DNA of 64,000 nt from assembly GCA_963726455.1 (NCBI GenBank), contig CAVSCK010000004.1:1536001-1600000 (forward strand), read 5' to 3'. Shown here piece after piece: positions 29,226 to 38,294 of this stretch. The position numbers and the translations under genes were made by a program. The notes under the pieces were generated by a model, which was given only the letters and a program-made list of their open reading frames with translations, did no database searches and had not been told where the DNA came from. Position 1 is the first letter of the stretch, and the number at the start of each line of letters is the position of its first letter. The DNA is from an uncultured bacterium. Lineage in GTDB: Bacteria; Zixibacteria; MSB-5A5; CAIYYT01.

Positions 29226-30965
29226 ATGCCCTTTCAAGCAAGAAACGTGAACAGTCTGGAAAAGACTGACAAATTTATCCTGCCGGTCAGCAATGAGCAG
29301 GGAAGCATACCGTCCGAGACCAGCGCGGAAGACTTACTCACGCGCATGGAACGTTCGGTGAACACGATCACCCAGGCGCGTCCTCATTTGTCAATGAGCA
29401 AGGCCGCCAATGGCGAGATCAGCAACTATAAGACCCTGCTGGAAATCTCGGCCATGGTCAACAGTTCGCTGGTGACGGATGACATTCTTCAAGTAGTGAT
29501 GAAGCGCGCCATCGAGATGATGAAGGCCGAACGCGGCTTTCTGATGCTTTTGGACGAACATAACCAGTTGCAATTCCGTACCGTATACAATCTCTGCAAA
29601 GAAGAATTGATGCAGGAGGACTTCAAGTTCTCCGGATCAATCGCCAACAAAGTCGCAGCGACCGGCGAATCGGTCTACACCTCCGACGCTCAGAACGACG
29701 AACGCTATTCCAAACAGAAATCGATCGCCGAACTGAACCTTCGCTCCGTCATGTGTGTTCCGCTCAAGATACAGGAAAAGGTCATCGGTGTCATATATCT
29801 GGACAATTCGAGCGAGGCCCGCCTCTTCCTCGAAAGCGATCTCTATTTATTCGAACTCTTTGCCACGCAGGCCGCGATTGCGATCAACAACTCCCGACTG
29901 TACGAGAAGATCGTCCGGCTGAAACGTTTCAACGAAAACGTAGTTTCCAATACGCCGGTCGGCCTGGTCGTACTTAGCGGTAAACTCAGAGTAGCCGTAA
30001 TGAATTCGGCGGCCGAAAAGATTTTCGCCCGCAAGTGCCCGGTTGGGACGGCCCTTGACGCTCTGTTGAACGACAGCACCTACGACCGCTGGCAGCAGAG
30101 TTGCCAGAACGTGATTTCCTCGGGTGTTGACGAGTCAATTTCGCGCTGCTACGTATCCGTCGGCGAAGAGGAAAAGGTCGTCGCCGTGAAATTTTCTCCG
30201 ATGGAAGAAGTCGACCATTATGGTCGCGGCGTGATCGTGGTAATCGAGGACATCACCGAAAAGACGATACTGGAAAATTATGTCACGATCTCCGAAAAAC
30301 TGATCGCCAAGGGCGAAATGGCGGCTTCAATCGGCCACGAGCTGAACAACTTCCTCGCGATCATCTCGAACAATGCCGAACTCATGCAGGTACGGCTCAA
30401 AAAGGGCGAATTCGACAAGCTCGAAAAATCGTCGACCGCAATTCTGGATAACATCGACAAGATCAAACGCTTCACCGATAATCTGATGGATCTCTCGAAA
30501 CTCGATCAGGAACTGGTGGTGTACAACCTCAACCGTCTGATTGACGATCTGCTGTTTACGATCAAGTCACAGCAGCGCTTCAAATCGGTCGGATTTGTGG
30601 TAAGAATGTGCCCCGAGCTGCCCGATTGCGAGATCGATGTCGGCCAAATGCAGCAAGTATTTCTCAACCTGCTGTATAACGCCGCTGACGCTCTCGAAAA
30701 CCGCGAAAGCAAGGCCGAAATTCTGATCACCACTCGCACCGAGGGCGATAGTCTCGTCGCCACCGTTCGTGATTCCGGCTGCGGCGTACCGCCGGAAAAC
30801 ATGGAACGGATATTCGAGTCGCATTTCTCGACCAAGACGCACGGCCACGGCCTGGGGCTGTCCAACTGCAAGAGAATTATCGAGAACCATCACGGCACCA
30901 TTACGGTTGACAGCAAGTTGGGTGAGTACACGGAATTCAAGATTGTTCTGCCGCACAAGCGGTAA
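29226..30965 (+). CDS. Cytoplasmic GAF-PAS histidine kinase
   Basis: GAF (AERGFLML, SVMCVPL, IGVIYLDN), PAS, H-box IGHELNN, NLLYNA, DSGCG, GHGLGL; no TM helix. Confidence 0.92.
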   Translation: MPFQARNVNSLEKTDKFILPVSNEQGSIPSETSAEDLLTRMERSVNTITQARPHLSMSKAANGEISNYKTLLEISAMVNSSLVTDDILQVVMKRAIEMMKAERGFLMLLDEHNQLQFRTVYNLCKEELMQEDFKFSGSIANKVAATGESVYTSDAQNDERYSKQKSIAELNLRSVMCVPLKIQEKVIGVIYLDNSSEARLFLESDLYLFELFATQAAIAINNSRLYEKIVRLKRFNENVVSNTPVGLVVLSGKLRVAVMNSAAEKIFARKCPVGTALDALLNDSTYDRWQQSCQNVISSGVDESISRCYVSVGEEEKVVAVKFSPMEEVDHYGRGVIVVIEDITEKTILENYVTISEKLIAKGEMAASIGHELNNFLAIISNNAELMQVRLKKGEFDKLEKSSTAILDNIDKIKRFTDNLMDLSKLDQELVVYNLNRLIDDLLFTIKSQQRFKSVGFVVRMCPELPDCEIDVGQMQQVFLNLLYNAADALENRESKAEILITTRTEGDSLVATVRDSGCGVPPENMERIFESHFSTKTHGHGLGLSNCKRIIENHHGTITVDSKLGEYTEFKIVLPHKR

Positions 30966-30974
30966 TATATCAGC

Positions 30975-33900
30975 ATGAATATCTTTCCCGAGTCTGCGGG
31001 GCTGCACGGGGCAGAGCTTATTGGGGAGGGCGGCACAGGTCTCGTTTATTCAGCATATGCTGCGCCACAGCAGCGCATTGCCGTCAAAGTTGCCATCAAC
31101 GACAGTCCCGCAACTCGGAAACTGTTCCACACCGAATACACGCTTCTCCGAAGTTTATCGCATCCCGGCATAATCAAACTGCACGATTTCGGTTATACCA
31201 CCGACAACCGCCCCTACTTCGTCATGGAGCTTCTGTCGGGAGGTGACCTGTACAGCTTCACCGACCGCCTGGCTCCCAAAGACCGCTTCCACCCGCTGGG
31301 ACGAATCCTGCCGGCGCTCGAATACCTGCATCGCCTAGATATCATTCACCGCGATCTCAAGGGCGAAAACGTCCTTTTCGATGCCGAGCACCGTCCGCGT
31401 CTGACCGATCTGGGCCTGGCGACCGGCTGCTGCGATAACGATACCGCGCGCGCCGGAACTGTCGAATACATGGCGCCGGAAATTATCGATAAGTGCGAAG
31501 CAACGCCGGCGGCGGACATCTACTCGCTCGGCGTGATGCTCTACCGCATGGCCACCGGACGCCTGCCGTTTACCTCGGATGATCCCTTGCAGATCATTTC
31601 ACTGAAACATGATCACAACGACGTCGACGTAAGCGAACTGAATTCAATTGTAACTCCCCGATTTGCACAGCTCGTTCGCCGCTGCCTCGATCCCGAGCCG
31701 GCACAACGGCCCAAGTCAGTTGGTGATATCGCCGAGCAACTGCAAGTTGACGGACTCATCGACGACAGCGATCTCGATCCATCCACGGCTCGAAGTTATC
31801 TGCACCACTACCTGTGGGCTTACAACGTAAGCTTTATCAAACAGGAAATACCGGCGGTCGAACACGATTTTCTGATCAACGACGCTTATCAGGGAGAAAC
31901 TACGCGTCTCCTCGACGCGATCTCCGATCATTTGCAGATTGCAGGATTCGCTGTATCGCGAACTAGTCAGGCACAAATCACTTATTCGCTCAGCGATGGC
32001 GCGAGCCACGTCGTGCGACTGGGCGGAACCAGCCCGACCTCGCACAATTTCCGTCAAGTCTCGTATGCGGAGCTGGATCGGTTTGCCTTCGATGCCATTC
32101 TCAGGAAGCTTTTTCCGTCCGGATACGATGCCGGTGTGACGGACATGCTGTATCGCCTCAGCGGCGGCAATATGGCCCTGATTAATCTGCTCCTGCTGCA
32201 GTTTGAAGATCAGGGATTGCTCAACGTCAAGGCCGGCAGAATCACGCTGCCACGCGACCAGGTCTTCCGCTTCCAGCCGTCGGAGGAATACTTCGACGCT
32301 GTGGCGTTGATGTTGCCCTCCGTCAATGAGGGTTCACTGGCAGCCGTGTCGCTCTTTGCCGCGGACGCCTTTGACAATCCTCATGATATTGTGGTCGAAA
32401 GCGCAAGTATCAGTGCGATCGATCTCGAGGACCTGATCGTTTCCGGGATTTTGACATCTGACACTTTTCAATTTGTCAAGACCTACTACCGCGAGTATTT
32501 CTACGGCCGCCTGTCGCAGGAAGAGAAAGTATCGCTGCATTGCGAATGGGTTGCCCTGCTGGACAATGGACTGGTAGTCACCGACGTCGATCTCGACGAG
32601 CAGTTGTTCTACCATCTGGCCGGCGCGGGCCGCGCGGAACCGGCTGCCGAAGTCGCGGTTCAGCTTGCCGAGCGTTTCCGCAGCGAACAGAAACCTGATC
32701 GTGCACGCGCATATCTGACGCAAGCGCAGTCGCTCCCGATGAACGAAATTGGGCTTGATCTTCGAGTGAAACTCCTGATGATTTCGGGAGACATCCGCAA
32801 GGACGCCGGCGATTATGACCGCGCTATCTCCGATTATGCCCGCTTGATTCGGCTGGCAACTCGCTCCGGCAACAATGCCATGCTGGCAGAGGCGTACAAG
32901 GATCTCGGCGACGTTTACAAGAGCAAACGTGATTACCGCCGCGGCAACCACGTGCTCGACCACGCCGTCGGGCTTTACGGCAAGCTGGGCGATGAGCTCG
33001 AACTTTCGCACTGCTTCAATAATATCGGCAATATCCAATGGCTGATCGGCGACTTGTCCGGCGCCGCGATCAACTATGAAACGGCACTGGAAGTTCAAAG
33101 GCATCTGGGGGCCCGACGGGACATTGCTTCAACCCTGAGCAATCTTGGCACCGTGAAACTCGTGCAGAAGCACATCGCGGAAGGTATTCGGCTCTGCGAG
33201 GAATCGCTGGCCATCAAACAGGAAATCGGTGACTGGCCGGAGTACGCGCGCACTGCCAACAACCTGGGCGCCATTTATTACGAAATTGAGGACCTGCAGA
33301 AAGCAACAGACTATCTTGAACGAATCGTTGCGCATCAACCTGACCCAGGGTGCGGAAAAGGAAATCCTTTACAATTACGAAAATCTTTACGAGGTCGAGT
33401 GGCGTCGCGGCAACTATCAGAAGGCCGCCGACTGGTTATTCTCCGGATTTCGGCTCGCAAAACAGAACGACTTCTCACACCGCGCGAATTTCGCCACGAT
33501 GCTCGCGTCACTCATGCTCATTACCGGCCGCTACCGCCGCGCCGCCGGACTATTGGACGTTGCCGGGCGTCTGGAGCACAACGTCGATGACCAGACATTA
33601 ACGCTCCGGTTGACGGAAGAGCGCGCCGAATACCATCGTCTTCTTGGCGATCACTCGCGGGCAAGCATATTCACTCTTGAAGCCATGGCGCACGCCGAGA
33701 AGCTCGACGAACCGAAGAGCAAGGCCAGATCATTCCTCACACAGGCGCGATTAGCGGCCGCTGCCCGAGAACAGGAATCGGCGGTTTGGGAATTCCTGCG
33801 GCAGGCGGAGGAAATTCTCGCCGGACTGCCGTTGCAGCGCGAGAAATTGACGATCCGGCTCGATCGCGTCCAGTTCCTGCTGGATTTGGGGTCGCTGTCA

Positions 33901-34293
33901 CTGGCGCAGGAAGTGTTCGAGCAGATCAGATTGATGCCGCAATTCGAGGGCATTAACACGTTTGAAGCGCGGATCAACTACATCAACGGTCAAATTGAAT
34001 CGCACAACAACCGCCACAAGCGCGCAGTCACGCTGTTCCATGACGCTTATATTGCCGCCAAGACTCTTCCCAACCCGGAACAAACCTGGCGATCACTGGC
34101 GGCGCTCGGTGAAACATATCAGACGCTCACCGAATACGAACGCGCCTTCAAGTGCTTTATCGAGGCGTTTGAAACATTGAAAGAACTAGCGGAGGGAATT
34201 GTAGATCCTGCCCTTAAGCAGCGCTATTTGTCGGATCCCGCCAAGCTTAGAATCGCTGAGAAGCTCGAGGAGATGTCAACGCTCGCGACCTAA
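30975..34293 (+). CDS. Hanks-type Ser/Thr kinase with degenerate NTPase region and TPR repeats, frameshifted near 33320
   Basis: GEGGTG, VAVK-like IAVK, HRDLKGEN, DLG, GTVEYMAPE; TPRs NNIG/SNLG/NNLG; continues in ORF 33229-34293. Confidence 0.88.
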
Positions 34294-34329
34294 AAAAAGA
34301 AGAGGACCGTCATGGGGACAGTCCTCTTC
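34292..34329 (-). terminator. Intrinsic terminator of the small peptide gene
   Basis: Minus strand gaagaggac-tgtc..gacg-gtcctcttc plus T7; the 34308/34320 pair is a G-U wobble only on the minus strand. Confidence 0.85.
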
Positions 34330-34357
34330 AATGACCGGTCTGAGGTTGCTGGAGTTA

Positions 34358-34435
34358 CTATTGTCCACCCTGGCTGAAACCACCTGGGGCGACTTTCTCC
34401 TCGAGCACCTCAATCATCAGATTGTATAACTCCAA
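34358..34435 (-). CDS. 25-aa putative precursor peptide MELYNLMIEVLEEKVAPGGFSQGGQ
   Basis: TTG start 5 nt after GGAGGAGGTG (34441-34450), tandem TAG TAA stops, own promoter and terminator, acidic IEVLEEKVAP leader-like motif, adjacent RRE-M50 peptidase. Confidence 0.8.
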   Translation of the reverse strand: MELYNLMIEVLEEKVAPGGFSQGGQ

Positions 34436-34436
34436 A

Positions 34437-34497
34437 ACTTCACCTCCTCCCATGAGTTCAGTGAACCGGTATTCACGGCGCCAAGGTGAAGTGGCGC
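34437..34497 (-). promoter_or_regulatory. Structured 5' UTR with a hairpin loop complementary to the RBS
   Basis: gcgcca-CTTCACCT-tggcgc loop is complementary to AGGTGAAG in the SD region; gtgaa/ttcac hairpin lies between. Confidence 0.5.
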
Positions 34498-34594
34498 ACG
34501 TGTTTTTCTTTTATCGCAGGGCTCCCGTTTTCGGGCCTCCCGATGATACTCGCTGTTTTTGGCAATTATGCCACGTCGATGCAATGTCCATATT

Positions 34595-34622
34595 AAGATA
34601 AAATGGAGTCCGAGTTTGTCAA
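34595..34622 (-). promoter_or_regulatory. Sigma70 promoter TTGACA-N16-TATCTT for the peptide gene
   Basis: Consensus -35 at 34617-34622, -10 at 34595-34600. Confidence 0.6.
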
Positions 34623-34726
34623 GATAAATTTGAGTTTGTAGGTCGATTTTCCTGTACAAACTGGACGTATACCCAACATTTGGTGTTTTGTCGTCTTTTG
34701 CCAGCCCATATATTGATTTCCAGCCC

Positions 34727-36982
34727 CTAAAACCAGGACCAAAATTCGAGTCGGAAGAACCTCGATATCTTCCTAAACAGCAATTCCGACCAGGGAGACT
34801 CGGCCGCAATCGACCTTGGCATACCCCGACATCTCGGGTAGCAGAAAGTGATTTTCGTTCGCGACAGCCGCTACCGCCTTCAATTGAGGTGACATTTTGA
34901 ACTTAAGAACCTTGCCCAAGTGTGGCGTCCCCGGAAAGGCGCTGACCCGCAATTCTACGGCGGCGCCGGGGTTCAGCAGATCAAGATCAGATTCGCGCAG
35001 ATCGACTTCGACCATCAGCGACTCAGTTCGGGCGAGCTGGAACAAGTCACGGGAATCAGCCGCTCCGACCATAACACCGTCAAAGGGGCTGATAATCGTC
35101 GACGCCGCCAGTTGACTCTTCAAATAGTCGACGCGCGCATGTCAGTTTCTCTATGTCGGCATCGATCCTCTCGACCGCGGCCGCCTTGGGAGCTGATTTT
35201 AGCAGTTTAAGTTCGCTTTTCTGGGCATCCCATGACGACGGGGCGATCTTGAACTGCGAAACCGAGCGCTCGTAATCGTCGTCGGAAATCAGCTTCTTCG
35301 AATGCAATTCCTTCACGCGATTGAATTCCTGCCGGGAAGACTCATACACCGCTTCCGCCTGCTGGATATCGGCGCGTTTCGTGGCAACTTCCTCGGCCTT
35401 GGGATCGGACAGCAACAAGCGCCGGTCCGCTTCAGCGCGTTTCAGATCCGACAGCGCCTCAGCCAGCGAACCCGAATTCAGAGTCGAGTTGATCGTTAGG
35501 AGCGTGTCGCCGGCGTGAACGGTATCGCCGATCGGAATATCGCGGTTGAATTTGTGTGATTGCGTAATCGGAAGCTGTAAGCTGGAATATTTGCGAGGTT
35601 TCGAAATCTTCAACGCCGCCGCGGAAATAGCGCCCCTCGATCAAGCTCGGTCCCACGCGCTTGACGACATACGATTCCGCTGCCAGTACACGTGCCGGTC
35701 CGCCGGTTGTCTGACCTACTCGAATCAGAACTGCCGGCCAGTACCACCAAAACAATAATGCCGACATAAATTGCGATGCGCTTCGGTTTCATCCAGACCT
35801 TTTTTCGCTCCCGCCATACGGACGATAAGCGCCTGCGACCATCTAACCAAAAGCCTTTTGAAAATAAGCAAACTCAGAGCGATGAACAACACAAATCCGA
35901 AACCGCTCCATTTCCCTATCAGAAACTCGCCGCCCCGGTAGAGCAGGAAGATTATCAGGAACAGCGAGTAGGCGATCGCCAACAGGCCATACCAACGGTA
36001 AATCCTGCCTTTCACGTGGTGTGGCAATGATGTCCGCAGGTGCGCACCCGAAGAGTTGGTCCTGATGCGCGCCCAGATGTAGCTGAAAGCTTTCTGGCGC
36101 AGGTTCGGGATGCGCAGATAGTCGGCAAGCAGGTAGTAACCGTCCAGCTTGATCGCCGGATTGAGATTAAACGCCGTGGTCGCAAAACAGACGGCAGCGA
36201 TCAAATAGAAGATGCGGTTCAGAAAATAGCCCTCGACGGTCACGCGCCAGAGGAGCGTAAACAGTCCCCAGAGAACCGCCTGCGCCAGAACTCCGGCTAG
36301 CCGTGACCAACAGCCGTTCGCGGCGATTCGGGAACAGGTAGGCGTCCGAGACATTGCAGTAGAAGCAGGGCTGAAAATAGAGCAGCAGGAACCCCATTTC
36401 GCGCACATTGCCGCCATATCGGCGACAAGTCAGCGCGTGGGCAAACTCATGTACGACCGTGATGACAAACAACGAGGCAATAATCGTCACAATATCCGCA
36501 GCCCGAAATATTGCCGTGATGCTGAAAGGAAATCGTTCGATATTCGCGAAGAAGACGATCCCGCCTACAACCACGATTAGTGCCTGCAGCCAGATCGCCG
36601 GCAGCGACATCAGCCAGCGTACTTTGGGATACAGTCGATTGAGAATTTGCTCCGGGTTGAAAGCCTTGAGTGGAATGAAAAGCGCTGATCGCCGCCGCGT
36701 TGTTCTGGCGATGGTGCCTTCGAAAAACCCCAGTTCGCCGATACGGCCAGCGAATTGGTCAACTGCTTCCGGAGTAATTGTCTTATTGAAGGTTTTGATG
36801 AACAGGTCAGCCGCATCTGCCGACGTGCGGGTGCCGTCCAGCGACGCCAGCAGGAAATACTCCGGCTCCCTCAGGCGGATGAATTTGCCTGAGACCGGTT
36901 CTTTGATGGTGTAATAGACAACCCCGTCGACAGCTTCCTGCTGCAGCCGGAGATCATCCTTAATCTTCGGATATGAGATCAT
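34727..36982 (-). CDS. RRE/PqqD-like domain + M50 intramembrane zinc protease + HlyD-type adaptor fusion, about 750 aa, several frameshifts
   Basis: YYTIKEPVSGKFIRL..YFLLASLDGTRT (PqqD-like), HEFAH, FNLNPAIKLDGY, GDTVHAGDTL lipoyl half, coiled coil, ISPFDG, LLPEMSGYAKV; reconstructed end RFFRLEFWSWF with stop at 34727. Confidence 0.85.
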
Positions 36983-37094: not shown

Positions 37095-38294
37095 CTAAAA
37101 CGACAATCGTAGTCGGGCGAATTTCGTACCGCTTAAGGCCATGTTGTCCAGCAAAGGATATTTGGCATAGTCATATGACAGATCAAAACTGCGCACCGTG
37201 CGTCCGGTAAAACCATCGCCCAACTTCAGTAAATTCACATTTTCCAGCCAGAGGATTGCACCGTTGAGACTAAGTCCGAAGCCGTCGGTGTCGAAATTCA
37301 TGCGCCCGTTATCGAGGTTATATTTCCCGGTGCGCACGTAACCGATACCGAGCAAGCCAATTTCCAATCCCCACTTCTTCACACTGACGTCGCTGCCGTA
37401 TAGCTCCTTTTCGGTTTCTGAGGCGAACTGGACCGATATCGCTGTGGCTTCTCTCACTTTGAGCGAGGAATATATCGACAACCCGACTCTGCTGATTTTG
37501 GGCAGTCTATCACTCTGAGCTGCCTGCGGGTAGGTGAACGGGTCTCCAGTATTGAGTTTTGCGTAAGCCACGGAAGGCGTCAACTCAAATCCGAAAGTCC
37601 GCTCGGAATTGCCACCGTTCCACTTATCAGTCAGTATCTTGCCGATGGGAAGCTCAAGGATTGCGCCGATGTCGTGGGCCGTCGCCTTGCCGCCAAGACT
37701 ACTGCCGTGACCTCCAGAAAACGAAGTTAAGTGGGAGACAATCTTTTTGTACGTGTAGCCGATCCCGATTCTAAAGTAATACTCCACTCCCACGGCCGCA
37801 GAGTACATGTCCGCCTTATCGTATGCCTCGATAGACAGGTTTTCAGTCCCTTCATATGCGCCAACATAGATCTTGCCGTAGTCCAATTTGGTCCGCGAAT
37901 ACGCGACAGACGCTGCGTAATTCAGATCGGAATTGGCCCCGTGTGACAGCCAATGGCGCGACACTCCGCCACTGGCGTTGAATGTTGTTGTGTTGAAGTC
38001 ATCAGTAAGCTCTGGGAGCCACTTGGTCTTGGCCGGAGCGGTGATGGCAAAGATTTTCTGCAGGTGCAATAATCCAAGCGAACCGGGATTGTACAGGACC
38101 GATTCCTCATTGACCATGTTGACTACACACTGTCCCATGCCATTAGCCCTGGCGGAATGGGAGATGTTCAAAAACAAGACTCCGGCGCCGCCAACTTTCT
38201 CCTGCGCGCTGATCTGGCCGGTAGCGACCAGCACGGCAATTATCGCCAGCACGGCTACCGGCAAATTGAACCAGGACTTGCTTTTCGAATGCAT
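37095..38294 (-). CDS. PorV/PorQ-like outer-membrane barrel
   Basis: Signal peptide, FLNISHSARANGMG..YNPGSL, terminal Phe. Confidence 0.7.
   Translation of the reverse strand: MHSKSKSWFNLPVAVLAIIAVLVATGQISAQEKVGGAGVLFLNISHSARANGMGQCVVNMVNEESVLYNPGSLGLLHLQKIFAITAPAKTKWLPELTDDFNTTTFNASGGVSRHWLSHGANSDLNYAASVAYSRTKLDYGKIYVGAYEGTENLSIEAYDKADMYSAAVGVEYYFRIGIGYTYKKIVSHLTSFSGGHGSSLGGKATAHDIGAILELPIGKILTDKWNGGNSERTFGFELTPSVAYAKLNTGDPFTYPQAAQSDRLPKISRVGLSIYSSLKVREATAISVQFASETEKELYGSDVSVKKWGLEIGLLGIGYVRTGKYNLDNGRMNFDTDGFGLSLNGAILWLENVNLLKLGDGFTGRTVRSFDLSYDYAKYPLLDNMALSGTKFARLRLSF

Follow-up and report, generated by a model that had tools for sequence, protein, structure and literature searches.

A conserved, unannotated 25-codon gene of the Zixibacteria, adjacent to a fused RRE/site-2 protease/HlyD-type gene, as a probable mini-precursor with a daptide-like leader

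The window analysed here, a stretch of 64,000 nucleotides from an uncultured member of the Zixibacteria, contains a very small gene on its minus strand, situated between two larger ones (Table 1). Directly upstream and on the same strand lies a gene whose intact relatives encode a fusion of an RRE, a site-2 (M50) metalloprotease and an HlyD-type adaptor, whereas the downstream neighbour, a putative cytoplasmic Ser/Thr kinase gene with TPR repeats, is convergent. A sequence-only reading of the locus had listed a TTG start, an SD, the double stop TAG-TAA and a terminator 28 nt downstream. All these elements are indeed there, but the strand had not been given: the gene is encoded by the minus strand.

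Table 1. Positions of the peptide gene, its signals and its two flanking genes in the window
Feature	Position	Strand	Basis or remark
Fused RRE / site-2 (M50) metalloprotease / HlyD-type adaptor gene	34727..36982	-	homology; intact relatives
Promoter-like TTGACA-16-TATCTT	34595..34622	-	10/12 matches; ~160 nt 5' of start codon
GC-rich 5' UTR hairpin GCGCCA..TGGCGC	34478..34497	-	flagged on + strand in hairpin scan
Ribosome-binding site GGAGGAGGTG	34441..34450	-	sequence and alignment; 5 nt 5' of TTG
25-residue peptide CDS MELYNLMIEVLEEKVAPGGFSQGGQ (TTG read as M)	34361..34435	-	sequence
TTG start codon (likely), first of 25 codons	34435-34433	-	
Leader, 17 residues	34435-34385	-	
Tail GGFSQGGQ, 8 residues	34384-34361	-	
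Double stop (TAG 34360-34358, TAA 34357-34355)	34355..34360	-	sequence
Intrinsic terminator: 13-bp stem, loop of 5, T7	34299..34329	-	28 nt after TAG
Convergent Ser/Thr kinase gene with TPR repeats (Pkinase, TPR)	30975..34293	+	Pfam

The TTG codon is the likely start of the peptide gene. An alternative in-frame ATG at 34453 would yield 31 aa, and the TTG is preferred because that ATG overlaps the ribosome-binding site and is replaced by ATA in the relatives. In an alignment of nine loci, which represent the peptide's own family, the sequence GGAGGAGGTGA is unchanged in 9/9, and an SD of the (A)GGAGGTGA type precedes the aligned ATG, GTG or TTG by 5-9 nt in all 23 copies that were aligned in total. 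The terminator is bidirectional and common to the peptide gene and the convergent gene, and its hairpin and T-run are retained across the nine family sequences. The promoter-like site, taken alone, is at chance level (1 found versus 0.9 expected); its TTGAC is unchanged in 9/9 family loci, about 190-215 nt before the start in the alignment. Since TTGAC, SD and terminator are conserved in the nine loci, the peptide gene appears to have its own transcription unit.

The untranslated parts of this unit show some further structure. At the place of the GC-rich hairpin in the 5' UTR the relatives likewise carry a hairpin, but with another sequence, e.g. CACCGGCG..CCGGTG, so that structure rather than sequence seems to be conserved. 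The palindrome ACCGGT(T) occurs twice on the minus strand, at ~34470 (~20-35 nt 5' of the ribosome-binding site) and at ~34338, just past the stops; in the downstream copy CCGGT is unchanged in 9/9 family members. The ORF might be enclosed by pairing of the two copies, which might alternatively be binding sites for a dimeric regulator. An Rfam scan of the region from 33.5 to 35.5 kb at E <= 10 returned chance-level matches only (best E 1).

The same small ORF was recovered from 21 further genomes by searching the 100-560 nt past the stop of the protease-like gene. A 25-position peptide profile, built from the 23 copies and run against six-frame translations, has matches in 236 of 285 Zixibacteria genomes (E <= 0.01 per genome, with the best matches at 1e-13 to 1e-15), in 167 of the 198 genomes that are >=90% complete and <=5% contaminated, and in 108/130 genera, mostly one per genome; these numbers include related genomes, which are not independent. 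The earlier proposal to scan the rest of this genome for LEEKxAP small ORFs was followed, and the pattern scan returned the window copy only; the profile search likewise gave a single match (G000). In the 23 copies the non-majority bases are distributed over codon positions 1, 2 and 3 as 70, 52 and 172, mean dN is 0.30 against a mean dS of 1.30 (103 usable of 253 pairs), and the invariant residues show synonymous codon variation. These patterns indicate that the 25-codon ORF is a real and conserved protein-coding gene that has gone unannotated. The gene callers are nearly blind to it: a 50-aa stop-to-stop query retrieved a single protein, of 44 aa, among 5.8 billion. Searches of NCBIfam and Pfam with the Zixibacteria peptide and with 10 and 7 precursors from other phyla identified no relevant family; the sole match, to UreE, was at chance level (E 0.086).

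The alignment of the 23 copies yields the consensus MxxYxLxIExLEEKVAPxGxSxGGQ, in which L6, E9, L11, E12, A16 and P17 are invariant and G23-G24, near the C-terminus, nearly so. The tail that follows AP comprises 6-8 residues and differs by lineage (xGxSxGGQ, S[RK][YW]G.., GGGGSGGQ), the first type being found in most lineages of the phylum. In one genus tandem arrays of 2-7 copies lie directly downstream of the fused gene, all with the same leader and with tails of the type S[RK][YW]G[AS][ED], such as SRYGAE, SKYGIG, SRWGAD and SKYGSSR. Two copies occur in a further genus, where the tails include GGGGSGGQG, GGGGSVGG and GLGSGGQQ, and one family extends the tail by ..NLWGGGGWG after GGQ. The combination of a conserved leader and a variable tail, which the sequence-only reading had put forward as a test of a precursor, is therefore encountered across the relatives, and the break in conservation falls exactly after AP. 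The xGxSxGGQ tail, too, is rather well conserved in most of the phylum, and RiPP cores do not usually behave in this way. A cleavage after AP is predicted, because conservation drops exactly at that point and because daptides have a P at -1.

The upstream gene encodes the putative leader peptidase and exporter of the peptide. In the window the ORFs 36982..36167 and 36417..35725 (both on the minus strand) match NF041824, the model 'daptide biosynthesis intramembrane metalloprotease', at 1e-38 and 5e-19, and two more ORFs match HlyD-type adaptors; in the relatives these parts form one intact protein of about 749-823 aa. NF041824 is the best-matching family for the fused protein. The intact homologue of the same genus matches this model at E 7e-69 and 232.7 bits over residues 47-402, the equivalog cut-off being 300, and by this score the fused protein counts as homologous to the daptide leader peptidase, but not as its equivalog. 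The same homologue matches HlyD-type models over approximately residues 500-740. The motifs HExxH and NxxPxxxxDG, which characterise site-2 (M50) proteases and there belong to two separate membrane helix regions, are invariant in 27/27 relatives, and HEFAH is present in the window fragment.

The N-terminal domain (residues 1-125; AF2 mean pLDDT 80.9) is modelled as three strands and three helices. Its top Foldseek matches in the PDB are leader-binding RREs, namely TbiB1 (5V1U, with leader; E 1.2e-3), PqqD (5SXY) and lasso B1 (6JX3; TM 0.70), followed by the RREs of ThcOx, TruD and PbtF. The similarity to PqqD by sequence profile alone reaches only E 0.75, and the assignment as a PqqD-like winged-helix RRE is based on the predicted fold. 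With seven hydrophobic helices ahead of it, the adaptor would be periplasmic, provided that the RRE is on the cytoplasmic side. In the databases these proteins are named 'putative peptide zinc metalloprotease protein' (JGI), 'HlyD family efflux transporter periplasmic adaptor subunit' or 'hypothetical'; the JGI label is presumably linked to YydH. In the paper texts searched, no description was found of an RRE-site-2-protease-HlyD fusion or of these leaders, nor was a passage on M50 or HlyD found in the text of a candidate paper, PMC3482391. A gene for a PorV/PorQ-like outer-membrane beta-barrel (37095-38294, minus strand; NF033709 at 1.5e-9, below cut-off) is located directly upstream of the fused gene in the window. 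It was considered as a conserved partner and rejected, as tblastn gave no match in the fetched loci, many of which have only ~500 nt of upstream flank.

In the assembly of this genome the fused gene is split into successive frames. Compared with the gene of the same genus it carries +1 insertions at ~36302, 35823, 35732, 35540, 35142 and 34785, and in addition one compensated pair of changes; the kinase gene is frameshifted near 33317. The seven apparent frameshifts cluster in ~3 kb (33300-36310), while no other long ORF of the window (up to 1247 aa) is interrupted, and one may ask whether the locus is a decaying relic in this organism, with the protease-adaptor and kinase genes as pseudogenes and the peptide gene surviving by its small size. 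We regard this as possible, but as the less probable explanation. The six changes in the fused gene are exclusively +1 insertions, with no deletion among them, whereas natural gene decay is dominated by deletions; this suggests that the six represent a local patch of consensus error in a 5-contig assembly. None of the six lies in a homopolymer run. Moreover, the correctly framed segments are still 62-88% identical to the same-genus protein, and the peptide gene retains an intact promoter, SD, ORF and terminator. A near-identical copy, sought in metagenomes to judge the frameshifts, was not found, the best match having 73% identity. The peptide system may be defunct in this particular genome.

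The peptide gene and the fused gene are linked both in position and in occurrence. Among the 30 best peptide matches, which were found without reference to the protease, the fused gene is directly upstream in 24 and not adjacent in six. Of 61 genomes, 51 contain the fused gene (48 identified by the N-terminal query and three by the C-terminal half beside the peptide), and the peptide is present in 51/51; in the other ten, which include two whole families, neither the fused gene nor the peptide was found.

A complex was modelled between residues 1-430 of the intact protein of one genome (G035) and its own 33-aa peptide, both with alignments. It scored 0.67 (runs: 0.69, 0.67 and 0.66) against 0.01 for the best of three controls, and passed a mark that is reached by 58 of 80 solved complexes and by 2 of 110 mismatched pairs. 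At least 67% of the contacts are common to the runs, with a partner pLDDT of only 54. Residues 1-18 of the peptide contact the RRE at 28, 36-44, 47 and 68-87 (strand and helix), as well as the catalytic motifs at 190, 193, 194, 197 and 283-298. The leader is thus predicted to bind the RRE and to reach the active site, although the pass may be due in part to the likeness to solved RRE-leader complexes.

On this basis we propose, with a probability of roughly 70%, that the small gene encodes a leader-plus-tail mini-precursor that undergoes RRE-guided site-2 cleavage by the adjacent fused protein. The gene would be expressed from its own promoter to the terminator, and the 17-residue acidic leader of the resulting mini-precursor (with Y4, L6, E9, L11, E12, A16 and P17) would be recognised by the N-terminal RRE of the fused protein. 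Once bound, the peptide would be led into the intramembrane HExxH / NxxPxxxxDG site, where a cut at or next to A16-P17, comparable to the P(-1) of daptides, would free the tail GGFSQGGQ. The fused adaptor would couple this cleavage to passage across the envelope, and the tail would probably be released without further modification. The sequence-only reading had already suggested a distinct precursor family that reuses the leader/protease logic of daptides, and the conserved leader, the adjacent protease, the co-occurrence in the 61 genomes and the complex model agree well with that suggestion.

A different role could be envisaged from the kinase side of the locus. The kinase-TPR gene is convergent with the peptide gene within 600 nt in 25/30 of the independently found loci, and a convergent gene is still present in the six loci in which the fused gene is not adjacent: a kinase-TPR gene in five of these, as detected by tblastn (G001, G008, G010, G012 and G013), and a 474-aa ORF of no assigned family in the sixth (G059). 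Because no hydrophobic segment was found in the kinase-TPR protein, its TPR domain is predicted to be cytoplasmic. The peptide might accordingly be a real small protein that is not a substrate at all, and that binds uncleaved to the RRE or to the TPR domain of the kinase as a regulator or adaptor, either gating the protease towards a different substrate or acting as a cytoplasmic ligand of the kinase. The similar tail and the single copy across most of the phylum would be in line with such a role. We nevertheless consider it quite unlikely. Conservation breaks exactly after AP; the tandem arrays with differing tails in one genus and the multiple copies with long variable cores in other phyla (see below) fit substrates better; residues up to 18 of the modelled peptide contact the catalytic motifs; and the presence or absence of the peptide tracks the protease gene. 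Signalling genes in general are recurrent neighbours of the peptide gene. In the window a GAF-PAS histidine kinase gene (29226-30965, plus strand) adjoins the kinase-TPR gene, and in the genus without a kinase-TPR neighbour (L174, L175 and L180) a homologue of this GAF-PAS kinase lies immediately beside the peptide arrays.

The sequence-only reading had also offered PGG as a double-glycine site, in which case the peptide would be a bacteriocin precursor of the C39 / PCAT type that is cut after PGG. An HlyD-type adaptor belongs to the known double-glycine export systems of diderms, the window copy does have GG after AP, and G23-G24 is nearly invariant. GG follows AP in only 2/23 copies, however, the others having AG, AS, SP, IG, VG, LG, IR, GS or GR, and in most copies only 0-1 residue would remain beyond a cut at the C-terminal GG. 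Furthermore, 20 ORFs between 26.7 and 53.8 kb (all scanned with Pfam, ten also with NCBIfam) comprise kinases, regulators, Omp85, a thioredoxin-like protein, a sigma/anti-sigma pair and an S9 peptidase; a tailoring enzyme, C39 peptidase or ABC transporter was not found among them. The double-glycine site is consequently highly improbable. In principle, the proposed system does resemble colicin V and other double-glycine ABC systems with HlyD-type adaptors, in that leader removal is coupled to an envelope-spanning adaptor. It differs from them in having a zinc site-2 protease rather than a C39 cysteine protease, in lacking an ATPase domain, and in a leader that ends in AP instead of GG. Neither a transporter ATPase nor an outer-membrane channel was found to be conserved beside the peptide and fused genes. 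That the ORF could be a chance reading frame within a small RNA or within the upstream gene's 3' region, as the ~160 nt 5' leader with its hairpin, the flanking palindromes and the near absence of gene calls might suggest, is hardly credible in view of the frame, start position and SD kept in 23/23 copies, the synonymous variation at invariant residues, the third-position excess and the lack of an Rfam family.

The closest known system is that of the daptides. In the daptide study (Ren et al., Nat Commun 2023), the precursor MpaA has the leader ELExMEAP with P at -1, an aliphatic core and a C-terminal Thr that is invariant and is the site of amine modification; tailoring is by MpaB/C/D/M, and the peptidase is MpaP, an RRE-fused site-2 peptidase. 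The Zixibacteria peptide shares the acidic leader, the common pattern being E(-8) L(-7) [ED](-6) .. A(-2) P(-1), and itself reads E/V(-8) L(-7) E(-6) E(-5) K(-4) V(-3) A(-2) P(-1). The resemblance to ELExMEAP noted from the window copy extends to the aligned copies, with L, E, A and P of the motif invariant in 23/23, whereas position -4 is K/R here and M in the daptide leader. Both systems also include a protease in which an N-terminal RRE is joined to an M50 / site-2 core, for which the daptide protease model gives the best score, and short ORFs that are missed by gene callers.

The Zixibacteria peptide is nevertheless not a daptide. The earlier judgement that its tail is of a non-daptide kind is borne out by the relatives: none of the 23 copies ends in Thr (the last residue is Q, H, V, G, A, N or S), and instead of a long branched-aliphatic, hydrophobic core there is a Gly/Ser/Gln-rich tail of 6-8 residues. 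Genes of the MpaB/C/D/M type (an oxidative decarboxylase pair, an aminotransferase and a methyltransferase) or an ABC transporter were not found in the 20 neighbouring ORFs. The previous statement that daptide enzymes are lacking nearby accordingly holds for the tailoring enzymes, but not for the protease, a homologue of which, frameshifted in this genome, adjoins the peptide gene and had not been noticed. This homologue is fused to an HlyD-type periplasmic adaptor and, as mentioned for the intact relative, scores 232.7 bits, below the cut-off of 300. Moreover, the peptide is mostly single-copy and near-universal in one phylum, and its hosts belong to diderm phyla, whereas the daptide hosts are Actinomycetota or Bacillota. 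A RiPP, strictly taken, carries a post-translational modification beyond proteolysis. A gene for such tailoring was not found to be conserved next to the locus, and enzymes encoded elsewhere may still modify the peptide. Most likely, and by analogy, the peptide works like a daptide at the step of recognition and cleavage.

The epipeptide protease YydH/LiaK (NF058609) likewise resides in the membrane, has HExxH and serves the maturation of a small ribosomal peptide. The fused protein matches its model weakly (7e-13 and 48.8 bits, with a cut-off of 225), and a radical-SAM epimerase or a YydIJ-type transporter, as in the YydH/LiaK system, was not seen nearby. YydH is not known to carry an RRE or HlyD fusion.

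As to the function of the short product, a signal or a housekeeping peptide seems more likely than a strain-specific antibiotic, because the gene is near-universal, mostly single-copy and located between signalling kinases. Bacillota use short oligopeptide pheromones of 5-8 residues together with cytoplasmic TPR receptors (RRNPP). The present system resembles these in its very short C-terminal product and in having a small precursor gene beside a cytoplasmic TPR protein. It differs in that the peptide has no signal peptide, that the neighbour is a Ser/Thr kinase and not a transcription factor or phosphatase, that the peptide and kinase genes are convergent, and that no import system was identified; any link to RRNPP is speculative. 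One could imagine that the oligopeptides of 6-8 residues serve as cell-cell or envelope-to-cytoplasm signals, which are produced by a one-protein device for maturation and export (with longer cores in many other diderm phyla) and are read by the TPR Ser/Thr kinase and the GAF-PAS kinase, as a diderm counterpart of RRNPP. We consider this specific scenario unlikely as it stands. More generally, uncultured bacteria may have in this system a candidate for signalling by short peptides.

Relatives of the fused protein are not confined to the Zixibacteria. At least 577 were found in MAGs beyond the phylum, labelled as Acidobacteriota, Gemmatimonadota, Planctomycetota, Verrucomicrobiota, Eisenbacteria, Rokubacteria and others. 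With the profile trained on the Zixibacteria, 31 of 80 fetched loci contain 1-5 small ORFs at E < 1e-3, and 24 of 50 metagenome loci carry a copy of the peptide. Outside the loci of the Zixibacteria type, the small ORFs mostly lie just upstream of the fused gene. The precursors of the other phyla share the leader MKxLxLxVEELE[EQ]RIAP, and their cores, 20-40 residues long, are rich in Gly, Asn, Pro and Ser. Ten ORFs flanking three of these loci, scanned with Pfam, comprise sensor kinases, a glycosyltransferase, a lysyl-oxidase-like protein and others without a match; a shared tailoring enzyme or transporter was not found among them.

If the proposed processing is correct, the daptide logic of a leader and an RRE-site-2 protease, so far described only in Actinomycetota and Bacillota and in connection with C-terminal amine chemistry, would extend to many diderm phyla, to unrelated cores and to a new protease-adaptor fusion. 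It would then be served in the Zixibacteria by precursor genes that are invisible to annotation though nearly universal in the phylum, and by a compact system of one enzyme gene and one substrate gene of 25 codons, in which leader-guided intramembrane proteolysis coupled to export could be studied.

Several types of precursor occur per cluster in a number of the loci from other phyla (L119, L120, L121, L128, L130, L138, L155 and L171), and some core types, e.g. ..GNPGNNNPP[RL]NNTNNPGNEGTGGQVSTG.. and ..GIGGTPGTG.SNS.GHGTEVS.GS.PQPEPGR, recur nearly unchanged across differently labelled phyla. Judged by their sequences, these precursors appear to be conserved paralogue sets rather than hypervariable bacteriocins. 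Finally, a leader-like ..LE[DE]RIAP.. is found, as a weak match (E 2.4 and 3.7), in two large ORFs beside the fused gene, of 438 aa (L161:2025-3338, plus strand) and 735 aa (L167:6524-8728, plus strand). Should these matches be genuine, large proteins may also be among the substrates of the system in Planctomycetota-like and Oligoflexia-labelled MAGs.
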